Source: a virus
Lineage: Duplodnaviria > Heunggongvirae > Uroviricota > Caudoviricetes
IMG/VR virus record: IMGVR_UViG_3300048850_000049
Span: 55,864-119,863 of that record
Direction: 5' to 3' (one strand)
Length of the DNA stretch: 64,000 nt
Of this stretch, positions 9,367-55,920 are shown piece by piece; the stretch's first letter is position 1; each line of letters opens with the position of its first letter. Under the pieces are notes generated by a model. The model did not search any database, had not been told where the DNA came from, and saw only the letters and a program-made list of their open reading frames with translations. Both the position numbers and the translations under genes were made by a program.

Positions 9367-11643
9367 ATGAACCGCGATATCATCGAACTGCGCGAGGTAG
9401 TTCAAAAGCTCGTTCCTCTGCTTTCTGGTAAAGGGTTGACGGTCACGCAGCGTGGCAGTCAGGCATATGTTTCAACCAACCCTCGCACGAAGCAGCCTGA
9501 GACCGTCAACATTCCCAATATTCCTGACTCCGCCCCGCCTGAGTTCGTCCAGGCGATCCAGGGCTTCATCGATCACGAAGTCGGTCACGTCCTTCATACC
9601 GACTGGAACTTCTACGGCGGCAAGGGCGGAATGTCAGTCGCGGATCTGCAGGATCCGAAGCGCCGCGCTTTTATGAACACGCACAACATCATCGAGGACG
9701 TGATGATCGAGCGGGAGATGTGCAAGACCTTCCCTGGCTCGGCTCGCAATATCTCAAGCACCCGCAAGTGGTTCCTTGAAAAGATCACCAATGAGGCTCT
9801 CAAGGCTACCAAGGATCCCAAGGAGCAGTTCCGCTACCTGATCGTCCCGATGATGCGCGCCATCGGCGGGCATGAGGAAATGCAGGATTTCATGGACGAC
9901 GGCAAGTGGTGGACGAATATCTACGTCCAGGAGCTGCTCACCAAAATGAAGCCTGCGACCATCGAACTCCTCAAGACCTGCACGAACACGGAAGAGACGC
10001 TTGTCATTTCCGAAGAGGTCCACGCGATCATCATGCCTTCTGCTGCTCCCGAAGCTCCGGTTCCGCCCAAGGAAAAGGAAGAAAAGAAGAAGGATGAGAG
10101 GGATGAAAAGAAAAAGAAGGGCAAGTCTGAGGACAAGCCCGAAAAGAAGGCTGACGAGGGCGACGGTGACGGAGAGCGTGATCATGAGGACACCAAGCCT
10201 GATGAGGACGGCGACGGCGATGCCAAGGACGACGAGAAGGATAAGGATGAGGAAGAAGATGCCGGCGCTGATGCTGGCGATGATGATGGCGCCGAGAAGG
10301 AGTCCGATGAGGCGGAATCCGGAGACGATGACGGCGACACGGATACTGACGAGCCGAGCAAGCCCGAGCCGAAAAATGCGGCTTCTGACGACGATGAGGC
10401 TGGTGAGGATGAAGCAGCTGCGGCAGGCGACGACGCCGATGACGACGCGGCTACCAGTTCAGGCGCTTCTGGTATCGGAGCTGAACCCGGCAACGCAGGC
10501 GATGGTGATGAGAGCGACGGTGATGCGGAAGGTGGCAATCCGCCGATCCGCACCGAAGGCGCCGATGGTGGTGGTGTAGGCACGATCGACGGTGGAGATG
10601 ACCACGAACGCCAGGGAGGAGGAGGCGGTGTCGGCAACGAGTCTGCCAAGTCCTTGTTCGACTATGAGGATGACGACTTTGACGAGGTTGATATGTCCTC
10701 GCAGATTGCGATCAAGATCTCCGACGAAGCCGTCCTCGCGATGGATCCCAAGCAGTATCTCGTATTCACTCGCGAAATGGATCAGATCCAGCCGGTCGAA
10801 GTGCCCGAGAAGATGAACAAGTCTTGGGTTCCGGCTATGGAAGACGAAACTCGCCTGATGACCTCAAAGATGTCGAAGGACATCGAACGCGCAATGGCTT
10901 CACAGAGCCACGTCATCCGCACGCCTGGTCACAAGACCGGCAAGCTGCACGCGCCGTCCCTCTTCCGCGTAACCCAGGGCGATCCGCGAGTATTCTCGCA
11001 GCGCCAGGAACACGTTTCAAAGGATACGGCCGTCTCGCTTGTCGTGGACAACTCCGGCTCGATGGGCGGACCCAAGATGAAGCTCGGCATGATCGCCAGT
11101 TACGCCCTCTCCTCGACGCTCGACCGTGTGAAGATCGCTCATGAGGTGATCGGCTTCACGACCGGCGGATACTGGAACGGCGTTCCCGACTCGATCCGTA
11201 GGGCAATGGCTGACGACGCTGCCAAGGCGGGCATTAACTGGGATCGGATGACGCCGATCATCATGCCTATCTACAAGTCCTTTGAAGAACGCATCACTGC
11301 AACGGTGAAGGCGCGCTTCGCCTATATGATGAATGCGCAAGCTGGTCTCAACGGCAACGTTGACGGCGAGTCCCTGCAGTATGCGGCTGAACGCCTGCTT
11401 AAGCGGCCGGAGAAGCGCAAGGTAATGCTGGTTCTGTCCGACGGACAGCCGGCAGGTTCCCACAAGTCGGGCCCTCACCTCTCGCATGTGGTCAAGGATC
11501 TGGAGCGCTTCGGCATCGAATGCGTCGGAATTGGCATCCTGGATGACAGCGTGAAGAAGTTTTATCCGAAATACACCGTCCTTCGGACTGTGGAGGATCT
11601 GCCTGGTCAGGTCATGGCCGAAATCAAGAAGATCCTCATGTAA
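9367..11643 (+). CDS. cobT: CobT-like vWA-domain protein with a long acidic tract
   Basis: C-terminal MIDAS motif DNSGSM (vWA); roughly 200-aa D/E-rich low-complexity middle; HEVGH motif near the N-terminus; paired with a CobS-like ATPase as in phage cobST pairs. Confidence 0.6.
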   Translation: MNRDIIELREVVQKLVPLLSGKGLTVTQRGSQAYVSTNPRTKQPETVNIPNIPDSAPPEFVQAIQGFIDHEVGHVLHTDWNFYGGKGGMSVADLQDPKRRAFMNTHNIIEDVMIEREMCKTFPGSARNISSTRKWFLEKITNEALKATKDPKEQFRYLIVPMMRAIGGHEEMQDFMDDGKWWTNIYVQELLTKMKPATIELLKTCTNTEETLVISEEVHAIIMPSAAPEAPVPPKEKEEKKKDERDEKKKKGKSEDKPEKKADEGDGDGERDHEDTKPDEDGDGDAKDDEKDKDEEEDAGADAGDDDGAEKESDEAESGDDDGDTDTDEPSKPEPKNAASDDDEAGEDEAAAAGDDADDDAATSSGASGIGAEPGNAGDGDESDGDAEGGNPPIRTEGADGGGVGTIDGGDDHERQGGGGGVGNESAKSLFDYEDDDFDEVDMSSQIAIKISDEAVLAMDPKQYLVFTREMDQIQPVEVPEKMNKSWVPAMEDETRLMTSKMSKDIERAMASQSHVIRTPGHKTGKLHAPSLFRVTQGDPRVFSQRQEHVSKDTAVSLVVDNSGSMGGPKMKLGMIASYALSSTLDRVKIAHEVIGFTTGGYWNGVPDSIRRAMADDAAKAGINWDRMTPIIMPIYKSFEERITATVKARFAYMMNAQAGLNGNVDGESLQYAAERLLKRPEKRKVMLVLSDGQPAGSHKSGPHLSHVVKDLERFGIECVGIGILDDSVKKFYPKYTVLRTVEDLPGQVMAEIKKILM
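10040..10690 (+). repeat. Coding low-complexity D/E-rich tract (about 215 aa) inside the cobT-like gene
   Basis: EEKKKDERDEKKKKGKSEDKPEKKADEGDGDGERDHEDTKPDEDGDGDAKDDEKDKDEEEDAG... Confidence 0.8.
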
Positions 11644-11650
11644 AAAAGTT

Positions 11651-11674
11651 AAGCGGGAGCTTACTTTCCCGCTT
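11651..11674 (+). terminator. Hairpin after the cobT stop (AAGCGGGA-GCTTACTT-TCCCGCTT), no downstream T-run
   Basis: 8-bp perfect stem. Confidence 0.3.
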
Positions 11675-11709
11675 GCATCCCACATCAGTTTTAAGTAAGC
11701 AATTACTTA
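11674..11709 (+). promoter_or_regulatory. Promoter variant (TTGCATCCCACATC .. TTTTAAG) plus palindrome TAAGTAAGCAATTACTTA
   Basis: Upstream of cobS 11750. Confidence 0.45.
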
Positions 11710-11749
11710 TGCGCAACGCGAAAGCGCTAACAGCTTAGAGGGAATATCA

Positions 11750-13054
11750 ATGAACCAGGTAGTTGAAACTGGTGCAGTCACCGCTGCACCGGACGGGAAG
11801 ATTTTGTGCCATATCGATAACGTTCGCGTTCACTCGATCCAGTCGCACATCCAGAAAAACCATAAGGGCTGGACGATCGAAAAGTATCAGGCCGATTTTC
11901 CTGGTGAACCGATTCTGTCGGACACTGCAAAAACGCTGCTCGCCAAGCGTGAGCAGGAAATGAGCGCCGCGGCTAGTGCTGCGCCGGCCGCTGCATCAGT
12001 TCAGGCGCAGATGGTCGCCGACGCGACCGGCATGTCCGCTCCCCAGGTCATCGTCAATCAAGCGTTCTTCCACGATCTATTCGAACTTGGCGCTGCACCT
12101 TCTGCGCTCTCGACCAAGGGTCAGCCCATCCCGGTCAAGACGCTCTCCGGGCATGACAGCCTCTCGGCCGATTACCTGCCCGAGATCGACAAGGCGTATG
12201 TGTTCAACATTGATCTTCTCAAGAAGGTCATTATCGGCTTGGAACTGAATATTCCCTCCTATCTATGGGGCTATCACGGCACCGGCAAGACGACGCTCCT
12301 GCAGCAGGCTGCAGCGCGCACCCGCCGTCCGTTCATGCGCGTCCAGCATACGATCAATATGCAGGAGTCGGACGTTCTTGGTCAGTGGACCGTGCGTTCG
12401 CGGCCCGTTGAGGTGGAGCAAATCGACCAGACCGGTGTCAAGCACATGGTTGTTCAGCAGCAGTCCGTCACCGAGTTCCAGCTTGGACCGTTGCCGCTCG
12501 CGATGATCAACGGCTGGGTCTACTGCGCCGATGAATACGATTTCGCGATGCCGTCTGTAACTGCGGTCTATCAGCCGGTTCTCGAAGGCCAGGCGCTGAT
12601 CATCAAGGATGCTCCTGCACACTTCCGCAAGATCGTCCCGCATCCGAACTTCCGCTTCGTTGCAACCGGCAACACCAACGGCATCGGTGACGAAACCGGT
12701 CTCTATCAAGGCACGCTTGTGCAGAACGCAGCCAACTATTCCCGCTTCGGCATCACTGTCGAGGTCGAATACATGGAAGCGAAGATCGAACAGGCGATCC
12801 TCACCTCCAAGACCGGCATCGACGCGGCGAACGCCTCGAAGATCGTCAAGATGGCGAATGAGGTGCGCAAGATGTTCCGCGATGGCAAGATCACCATGAC
12901 GATCTCGCCGCGTGAGCTGCTCCGCTGCGCTTCGCTCGGGATCGCTTACGGCGGTAACTGGACGCTCGGTATGGAGCTCGCTTTCGCAAACCGTCTGTCG
13001 CGCGTCGATAAGAAGGTTGTCCAGGAATACATGCAGCGGGTGTTCGGATCTTGA
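11750..13054 (+). CDS. cobS: CobS-like AAA+ ATPase (AAA_5/MoxR type)
   Basis: Walker A GYHGTGKTTLL; follows the vWA partner directly; RBS AGAGGGAA. Confidence 0.6.
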   Translation: MNQVVETGAVTAAPDGKILCHIDNVRVHSIQSHIQKNHKGWTIEKYQADFPGEPILSDTAKTLLAKREQEMSAAASAAPAAASVQAQMVADATGMSAPQVIVNQAFFHDLFELGAAPSALSTKGQPIPVKTLSGHDSLSADYLPEIDKAYVFNIDLLKKVIIGLELNIPSYLWGYHGTGKTTLLQQAAARTRRPFMRVQHTINMQESDVLGQWTVRSRPVEVEQIDQTGVKHMVVQQQSVTEFQLGPLPLAMINGWVYCADEYDFAMPSVTAVYQPVLEGQALIIKDAPAHFRKIVPHPNFRFVATGNTNGIGDETGLYQGTLVQNAANYSRFGITVEVEYMEAKIEQAILTSKTGIDAANASKIVKMANEVRKMFRDGKITMTISPRELLRCASLGIAYGGNWTLGMELAFANRLSRVDKKVVQEYMQRVFGS

Positions 13055-13056
13055 GT

Positions 13057-13710
13057 ATGACGCAGTATCGCGATCCGAAGGAAAGCCGCGCCCAGATTAA
13101 GGCTTTCGCTCACAAGGTTCTCCGCCGGGTGCATTCACTCGGCGCGAGGACGCAGACACTGGACGATGTTGAGGGCGAATTGTGGGTAGCATGGTGCCTC
13201 GCCTGTGAACGCTTCAATCCGGAAGCAGGCTGCGCCTTCTCGACCTATCTCTACACGGGTATGCGCCGGCACATTAATCGCTGGATCGAAAAGAATTTCG
13301 AGCGCTTCCACGATGAGACGGTCGCCGCGTCCCTAGACGCTTCCTATGGGTCAGAGATGTCTGAGGATGGTTCGGGCTCGACGCTCGGCGAGGCAGTCGC
13401 TGACACGCATATGCGTCAAGACCAGGAATACGAGCAGAAGGATTGCTTCGCTTACGCCCTCACCCGGTTGTCTGACCGCGCCAAGATGTTCCTGACCTTC
13501 CTTAAGGATCATCCGCCCGAGCTGATGGCGCAGATGAAGGATCTCGAAGCGAAAGCGAAGCACGCGAAGGAACTTGGCGTCACCTATGCCATGCCCAACC
13601 GTCTCACCAGCTTCATGATCTTCGATTTCATGGGCGCTACTCGCGTCGAACGGAAGCAAATTATGGACGAGGTTGCCCAGGTGGGGCAGCTGATTTCGAA
13701 CCAGGGTTAA
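13057..13710 (+). CDS. Sigma-70 family protein (region 2-like)
   Basis: ERFNPEAGCAFSTYLYTGMRRHINRWIEK resembles sigma region 2.1-2.4 (FNPE.G..FSTY....IR..I); start overlaps the cobS stop. Confidence 0.55.
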   Translation: MTQYRDPKESRAQIKAFAHKVLRRVHSLGARTQTLDDVEGELWVAWCLACERFNPEAGCAFSTYLYTGMRRHINRWIEKNFERFHDETVAASLDASYGSEMSEDGSGSTLGEAVADTHMRQDQEYEQKDCFAYALTRLSDRAKMFLTFLKDHPPELMAQMKDLEAKAKHAKELGVTYAMPNRLTSFMIFDFMGATRVERKQIMDEVAQVGQLISNQG

Positions 13711-13711
13711 G

Positions 13712-14260
13712 ATGACGACTATTCCTCAACTATCTCCAGGTTGCTTCGGCTCTGCCGTGGCGTTCAAAAAGGACGACACGGTATGCCGTGGCTGCAAGTT
13801 CGCGCAGCTATGTGAACCGGCACACCTGAATGCTCAAAAGGCTCTCCGCGATCGCTACGGCATCAAGACCACGCAGGAGGTTCTCACCGATCGAGCAAAG
13901 GCTCGTGCCGAAGAGAAGGCGCTGCGTGAGGCATCGCGGGACGCAGCTGCTTTGGTCCTGCCTAAAAAGACGCAGGAGCTGATCGATCGGCTGGATCGCG
14001 GTTCCTATGACGTGAAGGGCAAGCTCTCGCGCGGCGAGAATCCCTTTGGAGCATCAATGCGCTTCATGCAGATGGCAGCCCACATTCTCTTGAGAATGCC
14101 GGGCGATATCACCCGCGCCACGATCGCATCCGCCTACGTCCGAAAATTCGAATGGCAGCAGGGCACGGCTGACGCTCATGCGCGAATGGCAATCCAGGCG
14201 CTCGAGCACGTAGGCGCAATTATTAACAACGACGGCATCGTGTCGGTTCGGAGGAACTAA
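13712..14260 (+). CDS. Hypothetical protein
   Basis: Translationally coupled ORF with phage-like codon usage. Confidence 0.4.
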   Translation: MTTIPQLSPGCFGSAVAFKKDDTVCRGCKFAQLCEPAHLNAQKALRDRYGIKTTQEVLTDRAKARAEEKALREASRDAAALVLPKKTQELIDRLDRGSYDVKGKLSRGENPFGASMRFMQMAAHILLRMPGDITRATIASAYVRKFEWQQGTADAHARMAIQALEHVGAIINNDGIVSVRRN

Positions 14261-17200
14261 ATGCACTCAATTCTCGCAGCCCGCACTGACTTTTCAGTCG
14301 GTGAAAGCATCCTCACGACCAAGTTTCTCATCAAGAATGCGGTCGATGCGGGTGCCAAGGCAGTCGCGATGACGGATACCATGTCTGTCACCGGCATGAT
14401 CGACTTCACCGGCAAGGCGAAAGCTGCAGGATTGAAGCCTATTATCGGCGTCCGCCTGCGCCTGGTGGACAATCCGGAATGGCGTCCTGGCGACGGCGAG
14501 AAGAAGAAGGACATGCCGCGTCCCTACTTTCTGACGCTCTATGCGCTGAAAGAAGCTGGCATCAAGGCGATCTTCCGGCTGCTGACGCTCGCAAACGGCG
14601 CAAGTCGCTTTTATTACGAGCCGAAGCTCGGCTTCACGGATCTCTATGATGAACTGAGGGCCATCGAGGGTGACGAGTTGGCGATTGTCCTTGGCGATGC
14701 GCACTCGGTTCTGGAGCATCCTGACGCAGACGAGATCGTCCGCAATCTCAGCGCCGAGGTCACGCATCTTTATGCGCCGCTGATTCCTATCGACACGCCC
14801 TATTATGGGCGTCTTAACGAGATCGCCCTGCGGATTATCGCTGACACTTACGCCAAGCCGATTATCGTTCGTCCCGCCTTCTATGGTCAGGGCGAAGCTG
14901 ACACGCAGGAGATCATGACCGCGATCTCCGACAATCATAAGATTACCGATGGCTGGTTTAAGTCGCGTCACAACCGCGACATGCACGTCATGAGCCTGAC
15001 CGAACTCGTAGGTCAGATGAAGATTGCAGTCCAGCACCTTGAAAAGCGAGGCATTGTTGGCGCTGGCGCTGAGTTCAAGCAGGGGCTGCTCAACACGGGC
15101 GTTCTCGTCGCTGCCGTCGAATATGAATGGTCAAAGGCCGAGGTCTCGCTGCCTATCATGGCGCCTGATGAGTTCGCCGCTTTGCTGGAAGAATGCAAGA
15201 AGGGCTGGAAGATCCGCTTTGATGCTCCGGTCTTCGGACATCAACCGACGCCGGCCGAATTGTCGACCGTCTACAAGGAGCGGCTTGCCTACGAATTGCA
15301 GACGCTCAAGCGGCTCAACTTCTCGGGTTACTTCCTGCTCGTGCAGGACGTGGTGCAATTCGCCAAGAACAGCGACATTCTGGTTGGTCCTGGTCGTGGT
15401 TCCGTGGGCGGATCCCTTGTCGCTTATCTAATGGGCATTACCGAGTGCGATCCTATCCGGTTCGGGCTGCTTTTCGAGCGCTTCATCAATCCTGACCGTA
15501 TCGATCTTCCCGACGCCGATCTCGACTTCATGTCCGAGCGCCGGCACGAGATTTTCGAATACCTGGTCAAGAAGTATGGCGATGCGCGCGTCGCAGGCGT
15601 TTCGAACTTTGGAACGCTCGCTTCCGCCTCGTCAATCCGCGATGTTGGCCGCGTGACCAACATTCCTGAAAAGGACTATTCGGTCTCAAAGTTCGTGCCT
15701 AAGAAGAACGGTCAGAACATTCCCCTGCCCGACTGCCGCAAGGCAGTTCCCGAGATCGATGCGTTCGCTAACAACTATCCGGCTTTCTGGCCAATCATGG
15801 AACGGCTTGAAGGCACGATCCGCAACTTCGGACAGCACGCAGCTGGTGTGGTCGTCGGCGGAGTTGATCTTGTAGAGCGTGCCGTCATTGAACGGCGCAA
15901 GGACGGCTCTGTCGTCTGTTGGGACAAGCGCATCGTCGAGGATCAGGGCCTGGTCAAGATGGATATTCTTGGTCTTGTTACCCTCGATCTTATCAAGCTG
16001 ACGCTCGATTATGTTCGCGAACGTTCCGGCAAGCGTGTGGATATCAGCCGGATTCCCCTCGATGATGAGAAGGTTCTTGCGAACTTCGTCAAGGCGAACA
16101 CGACCGCGGTCTTTCAGTTCGAGTCCGGTGGTATGCGCCGGCTTCTGAAGGAACTCGGCTCGACCGGCTCGATCACGTTCGAGGATATCACCGCCGCAAC
16201 TGCTCTTTACCGTCCTGGTCCGATGGAATCGGGCATGATGGACAGCTTCTATCTGCGCAAGCAGGGGCATGAGACCATTGAATATGACCATCCGCTGATG
16301 GAGCCGGTGCTCGAGGAGACCTTCGGCGTCATCGTCTACCAGGAACAGGTCATGAAGATCTCCCAGGTGATTGCCGGCTACTCCGGTGCCGCTGCTGACA
16401 AGCTGCGCAAGATCATGGGTAAGAAGCTGCCCGAGGAAATGAAGAAGGAGCGCCAGAAGTTCTGCGATGGCTGCGTCGCCACGATTGCTTGCACCGAAGA
16501 ATGGGCAGGCGAGCTTTTCGACAAGATTGAAGGCTTCGCCGGCTACGGCTTCAACAAGAGCCACTCGGTCGAATACACGCTGATCTCCTACCAGGCGATG
16601 TGGCTCAAGACCTATCACGCCGTCGAGTTCTACGCGGCTGCCCTGACGCTTCTGAAGGAAGAAAAGCTGACTGGCATTATCCGCGATGCAAAGGCCCTCG
16701 GCATCGATGTATCCATGCCTGACATCAACATTTCGACCAACCGGTTCGAGATTGCGACGGACGCAAGGCTTGTGATGCCGTTCCAGCGTATCAAGGGACT
16801 GTCTCAGAAGGCGACTGACGCGATTATTAACGCTCGGGCGGCTGGTCCCTTCAAGGACAAGACCGACTTCCTCAATCGTGTGGAGAAGCGCGTCTGCAAC
16901 GTGAAGGTGCAAGGCGCTCTGGATCTTGTCGGCTCTTTTGCCCGCATCGAGCCTGGCCAGGTGGCCGCGAACGATCCGAGCCGCATCAAGGACCAGATCG
17001 AGCTCCTGCCCGGTCTCATCGCCGTCCATGTGCCTATCGATCATGAACTCAACCGCGACAAGGATACGAAGGTCGCGCTCGGCGAGCTGGTTGACGAATA
17101 TCGCGCAGCGCACGGTCCTGCCGCAACGGTCGCTGACGGATATCCGGTCAAGCCGTTCTTCGGCAAGGAAGCGTCTGCGATGGTGATCTCGGATGCTCCC

Positions 17201-17620
17201 GGCAATGAGGAAGATACGGGCGGCATCATGGGCTTCTCGATGTCAAACAACTCCGTCATCGAGGCGCTGGAAGAAAATAGCCTTGATAGAACGCATATTT
17301 ACTGGACGGCGCTCATCAAGCGTCCGAAGCGCGGCAAGCAGGTCACGCCTGACGAAATTGCGATGTATTGGCCGTATCTCGAAAAGGAGATCGAGATCCT
17401 GCAGCCGCCTATCATCGTGCTTCTCGGCTCGCAGACGGTTCGCCACTTCATGCCCGACTTCAAGGGCAAGGCGTCCGACATGGCCGGCAAGGTAGTCTAT
17501 TCGAAGAAGTATGACGCAAACCTGGTGATCGGCTTCTCGCCTGGCGAAATCTACCATGATCCGGACAAGCAGACGAACATGAATGAGGTCTTCTCCTCAG
17601 TTGCGGACATGCTGGCATGA
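14261..17620 (+). CDS. dnaE: DNA polymerase III alpha (compact DnaE) fused to a C-terminal degenerate UDG family-4-like domain
   Basis: N-terminal PHP (ILAARTDFSVGESIL..), GYGFNKSHSVEY polymerase core, HhH; C-terminal about 180 aa aligns to family-4 UDG (ISDAPGNEEDTGG, PIIVLLGSQ, GFSPGE) with GE->SD and HP->SP substitutions and no Fe-S cysteines. Confidence 0.8.
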   Translation: MHSILAARTDFSVGESILTTKFLIKNAVDAGAKAVAMTDTMSVTGMIDFTGKAKAAGLKPIIGVRLRLVDNPEWRPGDGEKKKDMPRPYFLTLYALKEAGIKAIFRLLTLANGASRFYYEPKLGFTDLYDELRAIEGDELAIVLGDAHSVLEHPDADEIVRNLSAEVTHLYAPLIPIDTPYYGRLNEIALRIIADTYAKPIIVRPAFYGQGEADTQEIMTAISDNHKITDGWFKSRHNRDMHVMSLTELVGQMKIAVQHLEKRGIVGAGAEFKQGLLNTGVLVAAVEYEWSKAEVSLPIMAPDEFAALLEECKKGWKIRFDAPVFGHQPTPAELSTVYKERLAYELQTLKRLNFSGYFLLVQDVVQFAKNSDILVGPGRGSVGGSLVAYLMGITECDPIRFGLLFERFINPDRIDLPDADLDFMSERRHEIFEYLVKKYGDARVAGVSNFGTLASASSIRDVGRVTNIPEKDYSVSKFVPKKNGQNIPLPDCRKAVPEIDAFANNYPAFWPIMERLEGTIRNFGQHAAGVVVGGVDLVERAVIERRKDGSVVCWDKRIVEDQGLVKMDILGLVTLDLIKLTLDYVRERSGKRVDISRIPLDDEKVLANFVKANTTAVFQFESGGMRRLLKELGSTGSITFEDITAATALYRPGPMESGMMDSFYLRKQGHETIEYDHPLMEPVLEETFGVIVYQEQVMKISQVIAGYSGAAADKLRKIMGKKLPEEMKKERQKFCDGCVATIACTEEWAGELFDKIEGFAGYGFNKSHSVEYTLISYQAMWLKTYHAVEFYAAALTLLKEEKLTGIIRDAKALGIDVSMPDINISTNRFEIATDARLVMPFQRIKGLSQKATDAIINARAAGPFKDKTDFLNRVEKRVCNVKVQGALDLVGSFARIEPGQVAANDPSRIKDQIELLPGLIAVHVPIDHELNRDKDTKVALGELVDEYRAAHGPAATVADGYPVKPFFGKEASAMVISDAPGNEEDTGGIMGFSMSNNSVIEALEENSLDRTHIYWTALIKRPKRGKQVTPDEIAMYWPYLEKEIEILQPPIIVLLGSQTVRHFMPDFKGKASDMAGKVVYSKKYDANLVIGFSPGEIYHDPDKQTNMNEVFSSVADMLA

Positions 17621-18243
17621 TGCCCCGGCCGGAACACTTTGTCCGGCTGGTGTCAGTGGAGCCGGAGAAGAAGACCCTGCTACAGAAGCTTGGAGATTTC
17701 GTCAGCGGGATCTTCAAGCCTGATACCGAGGCCGAAGATCGCCGCAACGCTGAATGGGCAAAGCTCCTAACGGCTAAGCAACCTGTGCCGCGGGCTCCTA
17801 TGCGAAGTCCGATGCTTATTCGGCCGCAGCAGGCGAAAATCTCAGGCAGTCCCACCAAGATTGGTTACGACGCCCCTCAACACCTGCCTGTCTGCGCAAG
17901 CGGAAACATCATTCTCTACGAGGACTTGGTTTTCGGAAGGTATTCAATGGAAGAATGGAACGACATGGAAGAGGAAGAACGCGAAGAGGTTCTCGAAGAG
18001 TGGAACGCCAACGTTGAAATGAGCGAACACGACAAGATTTCCAACCTCGCTACTTTCGGTATTCAGCCGCCCGTGCCTATCGATCCGCAAGAAGCTGCGG
18101 TTCGTCGTATGCACGAGAGGGCGGTTGCCAACAATCTCGCCCGCGACATGGAAGCCCACAAGAAGAAGCTGGAACTTGAGCTGGCAGAAGCCGAGGAGCG
18201 GGAGAAGCATTACACCGGCAACGCAATTTTCGGCGCGTTCTAA
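17617..18243 (+). CDS. Hypothetical protein with C-terminal AIFGAF tail
   Basis: ATG overlaps the dnaE stop (ATGA); ends ..GNAIFGAF. Confidence 0.45.
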   Translation: MMPRPEHFVRLVSVEPEKKTLLQKLGDFVSGIFKPDTEAEDRRNAEWAKLLTAKQPVPRAPMRSPMLIRPQQAKISGSPTKIGYDAPQHLPVCASGNIILYEDLVFGRYSMEEWNDMEEEEREEVLEEWNANVEMSEHDKISNLATFGIQPPVPIDPQEAAVRRMHERAVANNLARDMEAHKKKLELELAEAEEREKHYTGNAIFGAF

Positions 18244-19323: not shown

Positions 19324-20382
19324 ATGGCTCTTAGCCCCGAACTTAAGAAGATGGTCTCTGGCGCGAAGAATAAGTATTCTGGCGGTTCTGGAAAGACCAT
19401 CAAGCCCAAGGAAGGTCGCAACACCTACCGCATTCTGGCTCCGACCAGCGCCCAGGCTCCCTGGGTTCCTGCATCCGGTCAGTATTGGGCAGATCTTGGC
19501 GTTCACTGGATCAAGGCAGACGTAAACAGCAACAAGCCGCTCGTCGTCTGTGGCGACTGCGACACTGTTTATCAGCAGCCCTCCGTCCTGAACACCGCGA
19601 TCGAGATGGCGATTAACTCCGCTATCGATGAAGAGTCCAAGAAGCTCTACGAGGATTGGAAGGCTTCGAAGTCCGTCATCGTCAACGTGATCGACCGCTC
19701 GCTCGGTGAAGATCCGCAGGTTCTTGAACTGACGCCGACCACTTTCGGCAAGGTCATGGATCTGATCAACATCTACGACGACGCCGGCCAGGACATCACT
19801 AGTCCGCTTACCGGAACCGACATCATCGTGACCAAGACCGGCAAGGGTCTCAACACGAAGTATGACGTTGCCGTCTCGCCTGCCCCGAGTGCACCGCTTT
19901 CCGCGGACGTTCTCGGCCGCGTAACTGATCTGCACGCCTTCATTGCGCAGAACTACTTCCGCGGTGAAGAACAGAAGGCTCTGAACGCCATCGCCCAGAT
20001 TGCCGGCGTTGCTGTTCCTGCCCTGACCGGACCTTCCGGTGCGGCCGGTGTTCGCACTCCGACTGCTGCTCTGGCCTCTCCGTCTGCTACTGTTGCAGGC
20101 GCCCAGGTTGCAGCCGCTGTCGCAACTGCCCCTGCAGCTGTCGCTGCCGCCGCTGTGGCTCCGGCTGCCGCTGTTGCCGCTGCTCCTGCCGCAGAAGATC
20201 CTGCAATTGCTGCACGTCGCGCCGAAATTCTGCGTCGTCAGCAGGAAGCTGAAGCCGAGCTTGCCGCTCTGTCTCAGCCTGCAGTTGAACCTGCAGCTGC
20301 CGCGGCTCCCGCTGCCGGCATCTCCTCGCTGCCTGTTTCCGAACAGGACGCGATCCTCGCCGAACTCGATAACCTCGTGTAA
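19324..20382 (+). CDS. gp32-like ssDNA-binding protein with an Ala/Pro-rich insert and acidic C-terminal tail
   Basis: YRILAPTSAQAPW...GVHWIK..CGDCD..VYQQP...LYEDWKASKSVIVNVID resembles the T4 gp32 core (IRFLPSKNDEQAPF..H..C..C..; KEYSLVKRKTSYWANILVV); acidic C-terminus SEQDAILAELDNLV. Confidence 0.5.
   Translation: MALSPELKKMVSGAKNKYSGGSGKTIKPKEGRNTYRILAPTSAQAPWVPASGQYWADLGVHWIKADVNSNKPLVVCGDCDTVYQQPSVLNTAIEMAINSAIDEESKKLYEDWKASKSVIVNVIDRSLGEDPQVLELTPTTFGKVMDLINIYDDAGQDITSPLTGTDIIVTKTGKGLNTKYDVAVSPAPSAPLSADVLGRVTDLHAFIAQNYFRGEEQKALNAIAQIAGVAVPALTGPSGAAGVRTPTAALASPSATVAGAQVAAAVATAPAAVAAAAVAPAAAVAAAPAAEDPAIAARRAEILRRQQEAEAELAALSQPAVEPAAAAAPAAGISSLPVSEQDAILAELDNLV
19990..20340 (+). repeat. Coding Ala/Pro-rich low-complexity linker inside the SSB-like gene
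   Basis: PALTGPSGAAGVRTPTAALASPSATVAGAQVAAAVATAPAAVAAAAVAPAAAVAAAPAAE... Confidence 0.7.
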
Positions 20383-29683: not shown

Positions 29684-30649
29684 ATGCTTTTTGAACGCCA
29701 GGTCGAACGCCTTCCCGACCTCTATCCATGGGCGCAAGACTATATCGAAGCTATGCAGGAAGGCTTTTGGACTGCGAAGAAGTTCACCTTCGACAGCGAT
29801 GCCACTGACTACGAACTCAACCTCACCGACCAGGAACGGCTGATTACCAAGCGCTGTCTCGCCGCGATCGCGCAGATCGAGGTAGCGGTCAAGAAGTTCT
29901 GGACCAGGCTCGGCGATAATCTGCCTCATCCATCGATCACCGATCTTGGCATCACGATGGGCTACATCGAGGTCATTCACAACAATGCCTACGAGAAGTT
30001 GCTCCGGAAGCTCGGCCTGACCAATGTGTTCAAGGAGAACATGTCGGTCCCTGCCCTCGCCGGCCGCGTCGCTTATCTCAATAAGCACAATGACAAGACC
30101 TACGGCGACGACCGCAAGCAGTATATCTACAGCCTGATCCTCTTCACGCTGTTTGTGGAAAATGTCAGCCTTTTCAGCCAGTTCTACATCGTTCTTTGGC
30201 TCAATCGGTTCGACAACCGCTTCAAGGATCTAGCGCAGCAGGTGAAATACACCCGCAATGAGGAGTTGCTCCACGCCCAGGCCGGCACGCGGATCATCAA
30301 TACCCTCCGCAAGGAATACCCGGAGCTGTTTGACGACGAGCTCCGCGCCAAGATTCAGGAAGAGTGTGCCGTCGCTTATGACGCCGAGGCCAAGCTGATT
30401 GACTGGATGATCGGCGACTATGACCGGCCGAGGCTCAATGCAGAAATCCTCAAGGGCTATGTCGCACAGCGGCTGAACGAAAGCCTCGAGGGTATTGGCT
30501 ACGAGCCGATGTTCACCGTCACCGAAGAGCAGAAGGCTGAGACCTTCTGGATGACCGAAGGGCTTCTGGCACCTTCGAAGGTCGATTTCTTCCACTCAGA
30601 ACCCACCGAATACCAGCAGGCCGACCAGCCTGATGACGATGAATTTTAA
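29684..30649 (+). CDS. nrdB: Ribonucleotide reductase class I beta subunit (R2)
   Basis: Ferritin-like ExxH pairs (IEVIHNNAY; NEELLHAQAG) and FVENVSLFSQFY. Confidence 0.75.
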   Translation: MLFERQVERLPDLYPWAQDYIEAMQEGFWTAKKFTFDSDATDYELNLTDQERLITKRCLAAIAQIEVAVKKFWTRLGDNLPHPSITDLGITMGYIEVIHNNAYEKLLRKLGLTNVFKENMSVPALAGRVAYLNKHNDKTYGDDRKQYIYSLILFTLFVENVSLFSQFYIVLWLNRFDNRFKDLAQQVKYTRNEELLHAQAGTRIINTLRKEYPELFDDELRAKIQEECAVAYDAEAKLIDWMIGDYDRPRLNAEILKGYVAQRLNESLEGIGYEPMFTVTEEQKAETFWMTEGLLAPSKVDFFHSEPTEYQQADQPDDDEF

Positions 30650-30662
30650 TAAGGAAATGGAA

Positions 30663-32345
30663 ATGCGTGAAGACTACGCCTGGCTGAACCAGGAATCCCT
30701 TACTACGCTTTCTCGCGGCTATTTGCGGGACGGCATCAAGCGTGAAGATCTGAAGGACGCGGCGATCGCTCGCGTCAATGAGATTGTCGACACCGCTGAG
30801 CAGATCCTCGGCCGGAAGCTGCCGACGCTGCGGCACGGCATCAAGCGCGGGTGGGTATCGCCCGCCTCCCCTGTCTGGTCGAACTTCGGCGCAGGTCGTG
30901 GTTTGCCGATCTCATGCAACGGCTCCTTTATGGACGACGACATGGACTCGATCCTGTTCAAGAACGCCGAAATCGGCGCGATGACCAAGGAAGGTGCCGG
31001 CACGTCGCTCTACATGGGCAAGCTGCGCGGCTTCGGCAAGGCGATCCGTGGTGGTGGGGTTTCGGAAGGGCCGACGCACTTCGCACGTCTGCCGCAGGAA
31101 CAGGTTACGGTCGTCTCACAGGGCAATACCCGTCGCGGCAACTGTGCCGTCTACCTCGACATCGAGCATGACGACATCGACCGCTGGATGGAGATGCGTT
31201 CGACCGCAGGCGGCGTGCATCACCCGATCCAGCATCTGTCCTTTGGTGTCGTCATCGGCGACGAGTGGATGAACGCCATGCTGGCCGAGGAAAAGGGCGG
31301 CCCGAAGCGCAAGCTGATGGCGAAGATCCGCAACAAGCGCCGTGAGACTGGCTTCCCCTACATCGTTTTCCGCGACAATGCGAACAAGGCACGGCCTGAA
31401 GTTCTCAAGCGGTTGAAGCTTTATATCTACGCCTCGAATCTCTGCACCGAGATCATGCTGCACTCCGGCCCGGACGAAAGCTTCGTCTGTGATCTCTCGT
31501 CCGTGAACCTTCTCTATTACGATGAATGGAAGGGAACGAATTTCGTTCGGGAGATGATCTATCTCCTCGATGCGGTCATGACCGAATACATCGAGAAGAC
31601 CGCAGGTAAGCGCCTTCTGGCGGACGCACATCGCTTTGCTGTCCGTTGGCGCGCACTTGGCCTCGGAACGCTTGGCTGGCACTCTTATCTGCAGTCGCGG
31701 ATGATCCCGATCGAAAGCGACGATGCTCGCCGTCTGAACATCGAGATCCATGAATATGTCGGCGCAGAGTCCCACGCAGCTTCGAAGGAACTGGCGCAGC
31801 TCTTTGGCGAACCGGAAGGTCTGATTGGAACGGGCTATCGCAACCTAACGGTTAACGCGATCGCGCCGACCACTTCGTCCTCGATCATCTGCGGCCAGGT
31901 CTCGCAGTCCATCGAGCCTTGGGAAGCGGTTGTCTTTGAGAACGACAACGCCAAGAGCGTTTTCACCAACTACAACCCGATCTTCGTCGATCTGCTCAAG
32001 GCACGCGGCAAGAACACGGCCGAGGTCTGGACTTCGATCCTGCAGGCAGGCGGCCGCGTCAGTCATCTGGAATTCCTCTCACCGCTTGAAAAGGAAGTGT
32101 TCAAGCCGTGGGTTGAAATTAACCAGGAGGAGCTGGTCCGTCAGAACGCAGACCGTCAGAAGTTCATCGACCAGGGCATCTCCTTTAACGTCAAGATGCC
32201 GGCAGAGGCTTCGATGAAGGACGATATCGACCTGATCGTGCTCGGATGGAAGCTTGGGCTCAAGTCCTTCTATTACCGCAAGGGTGTCAACAAGGCGCAG
32301 GAGCTCGCTCGCGCGAACGCTTCCTGTGCGGCATGTGAGGCGTAA
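30663..32345 (+). CDS. nrdA: Ribonucleotide reductase class I alpha subunit (no ATP-cone)
   Basis: Active-site NLCTEIML; C-terminal CAACEA cysteine pair; RBS AAGGA 7 nt upstream. Confidence 0.8.
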   Translation: MREDYAWLNQESLTTLSRGYLRDGIKREDLKDAAIARVNEIVDTAEQILGRKLPTLRHGIKRGWVSPASPVWSNFGAGRGLPISCNGSFMDDDMDSILFKNAEIGAMTKEGAGTSLYMGKLRGFGKAIRGGGVSEGPTHFARLPQEQVTVVSQGNTRRGNCAVYLDIEHDDIDRWMEMRSTAGGVHHPIQHLSFGVVIGDEWMNAMLAEEKGGPKRKLMAKIRNKRRETGFPYIVFRDNANKARPEVLKRLKLYIYASNLCTEIMLHSGPDESFVCDLSSVNLLYYDEWKGTNFVREMIYLLDAVMTEYIEKTAGKRLLADAHRFAVRWRALGLGTLGWHSYLQSRMIPIESDDARRLNIEIHEYVGAESHAASKELAQLFGEPEGLIGTGYRNLTVNAIAPTTSSSIICGQVSQSIEPWEAVVFENDNAKSVFTNYNPIFVDLLKARGKNTAEVWTSILQAGGRVSHLEFLSPLEKEVFKPWVEINQEELVRQNADRQKFIDQGISFNVKMPAEASMKDDIDLIVLGWKLGLKSFYYRKGVNKAQELARANASCAACEA

Positions 32346-33069: not shown

Positions 33070-33363
33070 ATGATGTTCAACTTCCTGCGTCGGCCTGCGC
33101 CGATCAATTTAACCGTCAATATCAGCGGCGCGGAAATCGCAAAGCAGGCAGATGTCCGGATTTCCGAGCTTCTGACCGACAACAACGCCAAGCTGCAGAC
33201 CATCCGTGACCAGAAGGCTTTGATTGCCCGCCTGGTGGACGCTGCAGACGCCGGCGAGAATCTCCTCATCGAAAAGAGCGAGTTCACCGGCTACTGCGGT
33301 TCAAACCTCGAGAAGGCTACCTTCGAGGCTATCCGTGACGGAAAGACGTTCCTCAATGTCTAA
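33070..33363 (+). CDS. Hypothetical protein
   Basis: AGGAG RBS then ATG at 33070. Confidence 0.4.
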   Translation: MMFNFLRRPAPINLTVNISGAEIAKQADVRISELLTDNNAKLQTIRDQKALIARLVDAADAGENLLIEKSEFTGYCGSNLEKATFEAIRDGKTFLNV

Positions 33364-33370
33364 GGAACGT

Positions 33371-34315
33371 ATGTTCGCGAAGGTCGTGCTTGCAAGCAAG
33401 CCGACCAACGGCGCTCTGCCGCTCTTCTCAATCCACATGCACTATCCGGACATCATCCACGGCGAAGTGCTGACGCACCGGAAGTTTGGACGAAATGCCC
33501 GTTCCATGCGGGCAACGCCCATCAAGACCTTGCTCGAGGAGATCCGCAAGGATCCGTTTGTGCCCTGGCACTGGGGTAAGAACCAGAAGGGAATGCAGGC
33601 AAGCGAGGAAAACAACTCGTTGGTCTCTGTCCCGACCTTCAACGGCGGATGCGAGGATCTTACGCGGGAAGACGCATGGCTGCGTGGCCGTGATTTTGCT
33701 GCGATGGTTGCAGAAGGCTACGCGCTTTCCGACTATCATAAGCAGGTCGCAAACCGCATCATCGCGCCCTACACCTGGAAGCATACGCTGATCAGCTCGA
33801 CCAGCTGGGCGAACTTCCTTCATCTGCGCGATCATGAGGATGCCGAACCGCATTTCCACGATCTTGCGGCTTTGGTCCGTGAAGCTCTGGCCGGCGCACA
33901 GTTCCAGCTCCTCGAGCATGGCGACTGGCACCTCCCGTATGTCACTCCGCAGGAAAAGAAGTTCCACAGCCTCGACGTTTTGCGAAAGCTGTCCGTAGCC
34001 CGCTGCGCCCGTATCTCCTACGCGCCGTTCGACGGCAATCCGTCGGTCGATCGGGAACTTGAACGCTACGACCTTCTGGTTGGATCCTCACCGCTTCACG
34101 CTTCGCCCACCGAGCATCAGGCCACTCCGGACAGTCAGTCAACCTACCGGCTTCAGGTGAAGACTTTCGAAGGCGGAAATGGGTTCGATCGCTGGGAGAC
34201 TGTCTCGGAAGACAACAGCTGGAACCACTCCGATCTTTCCGGAAACTTCGATCCTGGCTGGATCCAGTTCCGCAAGACCCTTCCTCTCGAATTCATCAAG
34301 GATATAGCAGCATGA
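33371..34315 (+). CDS. Divergent ThyX-like (flavin-dependent thymidylate synthase family) protein with a C-terminal extension
   Basis: THRKFGRNARSMRA versus the ThyX RHRxxSxxxxSxRY motif, and SWANFLHLRDHEDAE versus ThyX NARSLMNFLNLRADSHAQ; AAGGA RBS. Confidence 0.4.
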   Translation: MFAKVVLASKPTNGALPLFSIHMHYPDIIHGEVLTHRKFGRNARSMRATPIKTLLEEIRKDPFVPWHWGKNQKGMQASEENNSLVSVPTFNGGCEDLTREDAWLRGRDFAAMVAEGYALSDYHKQVANRIIAPYTWKHTLISSTSWANFLHLRDHEDAEPHFHDLAALVREALAGAQFQLLEHGDWHLPYVTPQEKKFHSLDVLRKLSVARCARISYAPFDGNPSVDRELERYDLLVGSSPLHASPTEHQATPDSQSTYRLQVKTFEGGNGFDRWETVSEDNSWNHSDLSGNFDPGWIQFRKTLPLEFIKDIAA

Positions 34316-34780: not shown

Positions 34781-35251
34781 ATGGGCGGATCAACTTCCAA
34801 TATCTACATGGTGCCCTACCGGCTTTTGACGGCCTGGGCGAAGGCTCCCGCTTATAGCTCTGCCGAAGCTGCAGGCGCTGATCTTTACGCCGACCTCTCG
34901 ACTCTGGACACGGAACTCATGGAAACGACCATCCAGCCCGGCAAGCGGCTCCTGGTGAAGACCGGCGTCGCCATCGAATTGCCGACTGGATCCTACGCCA
35001 AGATCGAAGGGCGCTCCGGACTTGCTAACAAGCACGGCATCTGTGTCCTCGGCGGTGTGATCGACAGCGATTATCGCGGCGACGTTGGCGTCATCCTTCT
35101 GAACACCGGCGAAGAGCCGTTCACGTTCAAGCACGGCGACCGGATCGCTCAGCTGGTCATTCATCCCTATCTCGTCGGTCACTTTGAAGAAGCCGACGCG
35201 CTGACTCACAGCGATCGTGGTGCAGCTGGTTTCGGTTCCTCGGGGTCATAA
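34781..35251 (+). CDS. dut: dUTPase
   Basis: RSGLANKHGI, GVIDSDYRGDVGVILLN and RGAAGFGSSG dUTPase motifs. Confidence 0.9.
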   Translation: MGGSTSNIYMVPYRLLTAWAKAPAYSSAEAAGADLYADLSTLDTELMETTIQPGKRLLVKTGVAIELPTGSYAKIEGRSGLANKHGICVLGGVIDSDYRGDVGVILLNTGEEPFTFKHGDRIAQLVIHPYLVGHFEEADALTHSDRGAAGFGSSGS

Positions 35252-44280: not shown

Positions 44281-44840
44281 GCCTTCCGATTATCGCAGGT
44301 CTCGATTGGGAAACGACGGGCAAGTTCGAGCCGGACCATCGCATTATCGAAGCCTATATCGGGCTATATCGCGGTGGAAAGCGGATCTGGTCTTATGAGC
44401 AGCGCATCGACCCGCAGCGTTCAATCTCCGCGGATGCTCAGCGCGTTCACAAGATTTCGTCATCCGATCTGATTGGAATGCCCATCTGGTCAGCCGTGGC
44501 TCCCACGATCAATTCGATCCTTGCCCGCTGTGATTTCGTGGTCGCTCACAACGGCAATGAGTTCGATAGGCCGTTTGCCGAACAGGAGATGACTCGGATC
44601 GGTCTCACCCTGACCGAGAAGCCGTGGGTCGATACGATGCAGGATGGTCTTTGGGCCACCTCTGACGGCAAGAAGCCTCGCCTGGGCGAACTCGCCTTTG
44701 CTTGCGGCGTCGAATACGACCCCTCGATGGCTCATGCCGCGGCCTATGACGTTGACCGCATGATGGAGTGCTACTTCAAGGGCCTGGAATGGGGCTTCTA
44801 TACGCAGCCGAAGCTGGAAGGCTTCGCACTCGCTGCGTAA
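44277..44840 (+). CDS. DnaQ-like 3'-5' exonuclease (DEDDh)
   Basis: Exo I GLDWETTG, Exo II VVAHNGNEFDRPF, Exo III HAAAYDV. Confidence 0.75.
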   Translation: MSLPIIAGLDWETTGKFEPDHRIIEAYIGLYRGGKRIWSYEQRIDPQRSISADAQRVHKISSSDLIGMPIWSAVAPTINSILARCDFVVAHNGNEFDRPFAEQEMTRIGLTLTEKPWVDTMQDGLWATSDGKKPRLGELAFACGVEYDPSMAHAAAYDVDRMMECYFKGLEWGFYTQPKLEGFALAA

Positions 44841-55722: not shown

Positions 55723-55920
55723 CTATTCCTGGCTGATCGGGAAGACTTCTGCGCCGACGAAGAACGCCTCTCTCAATATCTGATCGAGGTTAACTTCGCT
55801 CGCCTCGAGAAACTGGACTACATCAAAGGAGTATTTCCTTTGCGCAAAGTGATGTTCCACGACATTAAGAACAGCAGCCCTCAATTCAGTCAGCTGCCCT
55901 TCAAATTCACACCTATGCAT
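55723..55920 (-). CDS. Small hypothetical protein, paralog of 54475..54684
   Basis: ATGCAT start with an AAGGAAAA RBS; shares a terminator with the convergent + gene. Confidence 0.4.
   Translation of the reverse strand: MHRCEFEGQLTELRAAVLNVVEHHFAQRKYSFDVVQFLEASEVNLDQILREAFFVGAEVFPISQE

Follow-up and report, generated by a model that had tools for sequence, protein, structure and literature searches.

A DNA polymerase gene whose product ends in a degenerate uracil-DNA glycosylase (UDG) domain was found in the IMG/VR virus record IMGVR_UViG_3300048850_000049. The window, meaning here the whole analysed stretch of 64,000 nucleotides (positions 55,864 to 119,863 of that record), belongs, judging by the gene order and the relatives that it shares, to an SSU5-like phage-plasmid of a rhizobial host. 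The gene, here named dnaE, encodes a C-family (DnaE superfamily) polymerase with an intact catalytic core, in which a relative of the family-4 UDGs stands where cellular DnaE proteins carry their OB and tau-binding domains. By analogy with other phage replicases that carry a UDG, this apparently dead domain probably serves as a non-catalytic replacement for OB/tau that holds or guides DNA or docks a replisome partner.

The translation of dnaE (Table 1) is one uninterrupted frame of 1119 amino acids (aa), with no internal stops or frameshifts. A match to PHROG 405 ('DNA polymerase') covers aa 5-1118, end to end, indicating a phage family in which the complete architecture recurs. The first-pass annotation, made from the letters and translations alone, had proposed a single gene in which a DnaE-type polymerase continues in frame into a UDG fold derived from family 4, and this was upheld by the Pfam matches, the alignments to family-4 enzymes, the AlphaFold2 (AF2) model and the Foldseek search described below. 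A separate UDG gene arising by frameshift was ruled out: the open reading frame (ORF) is whole in the window, and in those relatives where the gene is split the break lies ~200 aa upstream of the UDG-like domain.

The polymerase part contains the Pfam domains PHP, DNA_pol3_alpha, DNA_pol3_finger and HHH_6, all above their gathering scores. Residues D463, D465 and D618 of the Taq enzyme align to D418, D420 and D555, showing an intact catalytic Asp triad, and the three residues are invariant in eight diverse phage homologues. The regions alignable to the E. coli and Taq Pol III alpha subunits were aa 721-903 and 382-600. The product passed the cut-off of the Pol III alpha superfamily model TIGR00594 (677.5 bits vs 434) and was below that of the DnaE1 equivalog NF004226 (738 bits vs 1002). 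Matches to the DnaE profiles ended at aa ~898, which corresponds to profile position 886 of 1146, and alignments to the E. coli and Taq alpha subunits ended at aa ~895-903. Since the profiles stop at this point, the OB fold and the tau-binding domain are absent. The initial description of a polymerase with no OB or tau/beta-binding tail thus stands for OB and tau, while the absence of a beta-binding element is uncertain, given the sequence DQIELLPGL at aa 911-919.

The region that follows was assigned to the UDG superfamily by several methods. The Pfam UDG model (PF03167) matched aa 967-1098 with an E-value of 1e-11 and 45.6 bits, against a gathering score of 24.3, and this score and the alpha/beta UDG fold place the domain within the Pfam superfamily. 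A phmmer search of PDB sequences with the last 189 aa retrieved solely family-4 UDGs and UdgX, with E-values of 3.9e-10 for 4zbx, 5e-8 for 1ui0, 7e-8 for 1l9g and ~1e-6 for the UdgX entries. The motif pairings listed in the first-pass annotation were reproduced by HMMER, namely ISDAPGNEED with VGEGPGEEED (1ui0), PIIVLLGS with QIIVPLGA (1ui0) and GFSPGE with TYHPAA (4zbx). An AF2 model of aa 901-1119, built from a 32-sequence alignment, gave a confident family-4/UdgX-like fold, with a mean predicted local distance difference test (pLDDT) of 89.9 and a predicted template modelling score (pTM) of 0.87. Foldseek comparison of this model with the PDB returned 36 UdgX and family-4 entries with E-values of 1e-12 to 1e-10 and probability 1.00; the target-normalised template modelling (TM) score reached 0.79 over ~190 columns (TthUDG). 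UdgX structures ranked first; these and 4zbx, 1ui0 and 1l9g all lay at ~1e-12 to 1e-11. Weaker matches included the family-5 enzyme 2d3y, the phiLo UDG-PolA structure 9qhs (1e-5) and TDG (~1e-5), and a comparison with viral models gave phage UDGs as well as UDG domains from numerous phage PolA proteins. The predicted UDG fold of aa ~925-1119 is secure; the collinearity with family-4 UDGs that had been proposed for the last ~180 aa holds in alignment and fold, and the domain is longer than stated, at ~195 aa.

Active-site positions were tabulated from HMMER alignments to 4zbx and 1ui0 and from a MAFFT alignment of 129 related domains. In family-4 enzymes and UdgX, a Glu activates water, an Asn (N80/N91) forms a bidentate hydrogen bond to N3 and O4 of uracil, and a His (H155/H178) stabilises O2 (PMC10359453; PMC9796141); in the family-4-like protein DR0022, each of the substitutions E44A, N90A and H159A abolishes activity (PMC9796141). 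As the first-pass annotation had recognised, the catalytic GE is replaced by SD (SDAPG at the motif A position in both the HMMER and clade alignments), the motif B His by Ser1093, and the Fe-S cysteines are absent, with no Cys after aa 890 and hence none of the four 4Fe-4S ligands. Two further losses were found: the uracil-reading Asn position is occupied by Ala1017, and the family-4 PF that carries the stacking residue reads MG. The canonical free-standing UDGs included in that alignment retain GE[AG]PG, PF, TN, C and HP.

These replacements vary across the clade. The first Gly of motif A is F, T, L, S or Y, often bulky, and the last is N, S or T; the Asn position holds A, S, G or T; the His position holds N, S or T, most often Asn (GFNP). 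Some other clade members keep a CxxC and a third Cys. The pocket-lining positions 977, 981, 991, 1017 and 1093 all vary, and Asp at the catalytic Glu position (D978) is present in 36 of 40 full-length and 31 of 35 split members. The window protein does not reach the cut-off of the family-4 UDG model TIGR00758 (60.3-64.8 bits vs 125.3). On these sequence comparisons, the domain is a family-4 derivative that is neither a family-4 enzyme nor a UdgX.

The first-pass annotation had further suggested that the domain binds uracil or abasic sites without excising them, either as a template-uracil sensor attached to the replicase or as a UdgX-like trap. Both proposals are poorly supported, because the recognition residues have been lost and there is no R-loop His, although the domain is conserved. 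Uracil-specific recognition is very unlikely from the residues present: Ala1017 and Ser1093 occupy both reading positions, the stacking Phe is gone, the first residue of motif A is often bulky in the clade, and the equivalent DR0022 mutants N90A and H159A are dead. For a suicide trap that cross-links to abasic DNA, the first rank of UdgX in Foldseek might be taken as favourable, but that rank reflects only the shared family-4 fold. The equivalents of UdgX E52, N91 and H178 are D, A and S, and TIGR03914 (UdgX) scored 29-34 bits against a cut-off of 190. The nucleophilic His of UdgX lies on an inserted R-loop (PMC10359453), and in the window protein neither the insertion nor a His was found between T1016 and Y1036 or over aa 1017-1040, where UdgX has KRRIH with His109. 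We regard the chance of such a trap as negligible.

An exhaustive phmmer search with aa 921-1119 against 1.84 billion cluster representatives (50% identity) gave 1900 matches at E<1e-3 and 126 at E<1e-10. The strong matches fell into two length classes, ~1077-1155 aa and ~372-431 aa, the longer of which matches the window protein in its domain order of PHP, pol, finger, HHH_6 and UDG. The degenerate signature is common to the 109 aligned domains, in which K1020 and E1043 are invariant and D978, E984, K1023, R1061, K1068, D1073 and D1085 are near-invariant. Full-length fusions were found in the phages SSU5, nickie and ANB28 and in Klebsiella, E. coli and Y. pestis plasmids (of the pMT1 type, with one 96-kb plasmid among them), and the fusion is present in hundreds of sequenced plasmids.

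The ratio of non-synonymous to synonymous substitution rates (dN/dS), calculated by the Nei-Gojobori method for the UDG-like part (aa 961-1119), was 0.157 against Rhizobium phage RHph_X66, 0.187 against V1VFA-S and 0.010 between these two phages; the polymerase core gave 0.112, 0.120 and 0.013 in the same comparisons. The UDG-like domain evolves more slowly than the PHP domain and has been kept from Rhizobium to Yersinia at 36-45% overall identity. It is under strong purifying selection and is not decaying; a dN/dS close to that of the polymerase core and the clade-wide signature indicate a functional domain. That it could be a functionless relic carried along with the polymerase would agree with the loss of the catalytic residues and the Fe-S cluster, but this low dN/dS and the retention of a clade-specific signature between such distant hosts make a relic very improbable. 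As a separate observation, the PHP domain (window 14261-15160) is the fastest-evolving part of the polymerase, with dN/dS of 0.16-0.43 and 55-77% identity vs 75-86% for the core, and its N-terminal HxH seems, by eye, to be replaced by LAARTDFS.

The shorter class consists of C-terminal halves of dnaE genes that are split at ~aa 730, where the fingers end; the interrupting gene encodes a homing endonuclease of the HNH/NUMOD4 type. Examples are a Logan contig of SRR33465434 (L011, 2842-7152) and the A. baumannii plasmid NZ_CP076741.1 (L012, 1498-5741). The N-half is ~786 aa and the C-half, with HHH_6 and the UDG-like domain, ~383-421 aa; such C-halves make up ~35 of the 50%-identity cluster representatives. 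Another homologue, P0057, carries a LAGLIDADG intein at the same ~aa 730 site, and the split/intein site (~aa 726-731) corresponds to window ~16440-16460. In every split or intein case the UDG-like domain stays on the HhH half, showing that it is obligatorily linked to the HhH domain. The C-half of the A. baumannii plasmid (4476-5741) was named 'uracil-DNA glycosylase family protein' by PGAP. This label, propagated in RefSeq, is probably misleading because the motifs are degenerate.

One metagenomic DnaE (P0163, 1262 aa) carries a C-terminal UDG with GEAPG, a PF-type pocket, TN, HP and four Cys, which scored 90 bits with Pfam. An OB-like segment before this UDG was read by eye only, with no match to OB models, and the form combining DnaE, OB and an intact UDG was not found in isolated phages among 50,697 phage records. 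P0163 suggests, from its sequence, that DnaE-UDG fusions with activity occur or once occurred, and that the domain of SSU5-type proteins is a specialised derivative of an ancestral active fusion that was later inactivated.

The conserved acidic residues of motif A leave room for a pocket that still does something. A read-ahead template sensor would flip out or bind uracil, an AP (apurinic/apyrimidinic) site or another base without cutting, and stall or signal the polymerase. The UDG fold kept at high confidence and the conservation of Asp978 and Glu984 in or beside motif A are in line with it, the active UDG of SP15-like PolA reads deoxyuridine (dU) on the 5' template (bioRxiv 10.1101/2025.03.26.645540), and the apparently intact UDG of P0163 makes an ancestral read-ahead plausible. 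However, the Asn, the His and the stacking Phe are all gone, the pocket-lining positions vary in a way unlike a specific ligand pocket, and a dUTPase and ThyX are encoded, so template dU should be rare; we consider a sensor unlikely.

The same pocket could instead belong to an altered glycosylase, in which Asp activates water, as in family 1, motif B works through Asn or Ser, as in MUG and TDG, and a base other than uracil is removed. The prevalence of D978 in both full-length and split members fits this scheme, as do a motif B that is mostly Asn (GFNP; the MUG motif is NPSG) and the Foldseek matches to TDG structures. Against it stand the curated family-4 cut-off that was not reached, a motif B that is Ser in the window and drifts between N, S and T elsewhere, a motif A first Gly that is often Phe or Leu and would fill the pocket, the lack of any equivalent of the base-reading Asn, and the fact that no base-modification pathway was seen in the window. 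An altered glycosylase appears rather improbable.

More generally, the Asp978/Glu984 pocket would be a working site on a C-family replicase, whether it reads bases or lesions in the template or acts as an Asp-dependent glycosylase with a new specificity; we give this a low probability. If true, DnaE polymerases would possess a built-in read-ahead comparable to archaeal PolB uracil sensing and to the read-ahead UDG of SP15-like PolA, and its source would be an active ancestral fusion of DnaE and UDG like P0163.

The non-catalytic replacement of OB/tau is the explanation that we favour. A descendant of a family-4 (Fe-S) UDG has taken the place of OB and tau-binding domains; it apparently no longer recognises uracil, has neither the catalytic His nor an Fe-S cluster, and would have been retained as a non-catalytic module. 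Since the UDG fold is a DNA-backbone-gripping scaffold, the module could grip or guide DNA near the fork, or it could dock a phage or host replisome partner; either way, it would supply the processivity or coupling that OB and tau give cellular DnaE, possibly with the host clamp recruited through DQxELLPGL.

This candidate clamp site lies in the linker between the HhH domain and the UDG fold, where a motif of the form [DH]PxRxxDQxE[LF][LMI]PGL (DPSRIKDQIELLPGL in the window protein) occupies aa 905-919. R908 was kept in 86 of 90 sequences, Q912 in 84, L915 in 67, P917 in 78 and G918 in 68, and D911, Q912, E914 and L915 are invariant in eight phage proteins. The bacterial clamp-binding consensus is QL[SD]LF, and the E. 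coli alpha subunit carries QADMF at 920-924. QIELL (aa 912-916), of the form Q-x-[ED]-L-[LMF], fits this consensus, and the distance of the motif after the GAF-x-R-x-x-P helix is comparable to that in cellular DnaE. AF2 predicted a helical linker, with pLDDT of ~60 for the domain alone and ~80 when the HhH domain was included. DQxELLPGL is a candidate for an internal motif that binds the beta clamp. The portions of RHph_X66 that were covered (~3.5 kb lay outside) have no annotated clamp gene, which makes use of the host beta clamp plausible.

Several points weigh against the favoured explanation. The UDG-like core is acidic, with a net charge of -8 (clade mean -1.8; canonical UDGs -1.4), which does not favour a basic electrostatic DNA clamp. 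A pure scaffold leaves the near-invariant D978 unexplained, and together with the conserved E984 this residue could, from its conservation, point to a site that retains some chemistry or binds a ligand. The AF2 model of aa 746-1119 had a pTM of 0.60 and a linker pLDDT of 69-83, from which a fixed pose relative to the polymerase is not derivable. In addition, the linker, modelled as a helix, might simply be homologous to the one found after GAFDRLGP in cellular DnaE.

Table 1. Features of the dnaE gene and of other genes in the window (window coordinates).
Feature	Coordinates	Strand	Basis or remark
Shine-Dalgarno GGAGGA	14250-14255	+	6 nt 5' of the dnaE ATG
dnaE-like gene, including the UDG-like domain	14261..17620	+	single ORF, 1119 aa; PHROG 405 match
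PHP domain, Pfam core, aa 8-131	14282..14653	+	Pfam
Pol III alpha palm/thumb, aa 308-571	15182..15973	+	Pfam
Catalytic Asp D418, D420	15512-15520	+	Taq alignment
Catalytic Asp D555	15923-15925	+	Taq alignment
Fingers, aa 574-740	15980..16480	+	Pfam
HhH (HHH_6)/beta-binding-domain region, aa 814-897	16700..16951	+	last part alignable to cellular DnaE
Linker motif, aa 905-919 (candidate clamp site)	16973..17017	+	between HhH and UDG fold
UDG family-4-like fold, degenerate, aa ~925-1119	17033..17617	+	Pfam, phmmer, AF2, Foldseek
Motif A equivalent SDAPG (family 4: GE[AG]PG)	17189..17203	+	Glu replaced by D978
YWTALIKRPK (family 4: [FY]ITNxVKCRPP)	17300..17329	+	Ala1017 at Asn position; Fe-S Cys gone
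Motif B equivalent GFSPGE (family 4: xxHP[AS])	17531..17548	+	Ser1093 at His position
208-aa ORF 3' of dnaE	17617..18243	+	start overlaps dnaE stop
gp32-like single-stranded DNA-binding protein	19324-20382		part of the conserved gene order
RNR (ribonucleotide reductase)	29684-32342		tblastn with annotated RHph_X66 proteins
ThyX thymidylate synthase	33359-34312	+	tblastn with annotated RHph_X66 proteins
dUTPase	34781-35233	+	tblastn with annotated RHph_X66 proteins
DnaQ-like (epsilon) 3'-5' exonuclease gene	44283..44837	+	separate proofreading-type gene

The dnaE gene is tightly packed between its neighbours (Table 1). Its ATG is directly abutted by the TAA stop of the upstream ORF, and its TGA stop overlaps the ATG of the next ORF in an ATGA (17617-17620), so that the two are possibly translationally coupled. 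The immediate neighbours gave no informative family matches, and the 208-aa downstream ORF had no match in Pfam or PHROG. This ORF carries an acidic stretch, EEWNDMEEEEREEVLEEW; its position is kept in RHph_X66 and V1VFA-S, and its size is not kept in SSU5 and nickie. It could be a polymerase accessory factor.

The nearest phage proteins, 82% identical to the window protein, are annotated as 'DNA polymerase III alpha subunit' in the Rhizobium phages RHph_X66, V1VFA-S and B1VFA, with which DNA identity is ~78%. The closest public relative of the region is the Sinorhizobium sp. LM21 plasmid pLM21S1, whose dnaE product shares 83% aa identity. A search of genome contigs for related loci with the single protein found no relative. 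Genes are arranged in the order CobT, CobS/MoxR ATPase, sigma factor, hypothetical, dnaE, hypotheticals, gp32-like single-stranded DNA-binding protein, FEN, RecA, SbcCD and RNR, which is common to Salmonella phage SSU5, Pseudomonas phage nickie, Stenotrophomonas phage ANB28 and many Klebsiella and E. coli phage-plasmids. In the window, the CobT-like gene, the CobS/MoxR-like AAA ATPase and the sigma-70-like factor lie directly 5' of dnaE (10645-13710), and this order with dnaE is kept in Rhizobium, Salmonella, Acinetobacter and Pseudomonas phage-plasmids. A RepC-type replication gene annotated in the related RHph_X66 fits the phage-plasmid lifestyle. In the records of the relatives, product names of the intact gene never mention the UDG domain. 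The record of Xanthomonas phage JGB6 (L007, OQ436456.1) shows shifted product names, such as 'AAA family ATPase' over the dnaE C-terminus, and a dnaE divided into many small coding sequences, which is likely a sequencing or annotation problem; this phage was left out as a homologue.

Genes for ThyX, dUTPase and RNR were detected in the window, which implies that the DNA contains ordinary thymine and that the dUTP pool is low. With a profile built from the UDG alignment, the 495 six-frame ORFs of the window yielded no second UDG domain of the family-4 type. No pathway for 5-hydroxymethyluracil (hmU) or other base modification was seen in the window either, and with ThyX and dUTPase present, a link to hypermodified thymidine as in the SPO1 and SP15 phages was rejected.

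Compared with cellular DnaE1 (E. coli and Taq), the phage protein has the same order of PHP, palm, thumb, fingers and HhH and the same Asp triad, but it has neither an OB fold nor a C-terminal domain for tau binding, and proofreading is encoded in a separate phage DnaQ-like gene. With the family-4 UDGs (TthUDG 1ui0, S. tokodaii 4zbx) and UdgX (6ail) the C-terminal domain shares fold and collinear motifs; unlike them, it is not free-standing, has no 4Fe-4S Cys, and shows Asp for Glu, Ala for Asn and Ser for His.

A literature search for a described DnaE-UDG fusion found nothing specific, although a prior mention is possible. Aravind and Koonin are said to have perhaps mentioned, in 2000, a Pol III-UDG fusion on a Yersinia plasmid. 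For viral C-family polymerases, the sole statement found was that of Kazlauskas and Venclovas (2011), who reported that the region after the fingers differs from that of E. coli and 'may include different structural domains' (PMC3201878). The DnaE-UDG fusion is real, widespread and uncharacterised; it is neither hidden, as the Pfam and NCBI models see the domain, nor categorically new. Association of UDGs with polymerases is known for the A family, where the domain is N-terminal and either active or inactive (cryo-EM 2025-26), and for the poxvirus B family.

The most similar arrangement is that of the N4-like PolA proteins (cluster 17; Czernecki et al. 2023, PMC10201439), which are likewise phage replicases with a covalently attached UDG of family-4 descent and unconserved catalytic residues; that UDG, located in the N-terminal part, has been proposed to be a processivity or structural module, an analogy that may extend to the window domain. 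They differ in being A-family polymerases with the UDG N-terminal, between the exonuclease and polymerase domains, whereas here a C-family polymerase carries it C-terminally, in place of OB/tau. The N4-type UDG also has a deletion of a helix and a beta-hairpin, in contrast to the window domain, which keeps the full fold seen in the TthUDG comparison. The SPO1- and SP15-like UDG-PolA proteins (YerA41, phiLo; PDB 9qhs) are a second case of a UDG fold on a phage replicase. In these, motifs A and B are kept, the domain is active and dU is excised ahead of the fork, while the window domain is without those residues. The active UDG-PolA of SPO1, SP15 and YerA41 has been tied to hmU-derived hypermodification (PMC10201439; 10.1101/2025.03.26.645540); those phages have hypermodified thymidine, whereas the window phage has ThyX and dUTPase. 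For the UDG of SPO1/T5 PolA, a role as intrinsic factor for processivity was proposed on the model of vaccinia D4-A20 (PMC3201878).

In poxviruses, the holoenzyme of the B-family polymerase includes the D4/E4 UDG among its subunits (as cited by PMC3201878 and the 2025 preprint). D4 is thus another UDG fold recruited to a viral replicase, but it is a separate, catalytically active, family-1-like protein bridged to the polymerase by A20, whereas the window domain is fused and looks inactive. The processivity role of D4 is independent of its glycosylase activity.

Recruitment of UDGs to replicases extends to the C family, at the opposite end of the protein and at the OB/tau site, in a large clade among whose members are phage-plasmids that are common clinically (SSU5; Klebsiella, E. 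coli and Y. pestis plasmids). If the domain is indeed a processivity or coupling module, it would explain how these phages operate a DnaE replicase without tau, and it would be the third independent instance of a repair fold turned into replisome hardware. The comparison matters mainly because UDGs accompany replicases of three polymerase families alike, and because it raises the idea, open to test, that phage DnaE replicases use a dead UDG instead of OB/tau.

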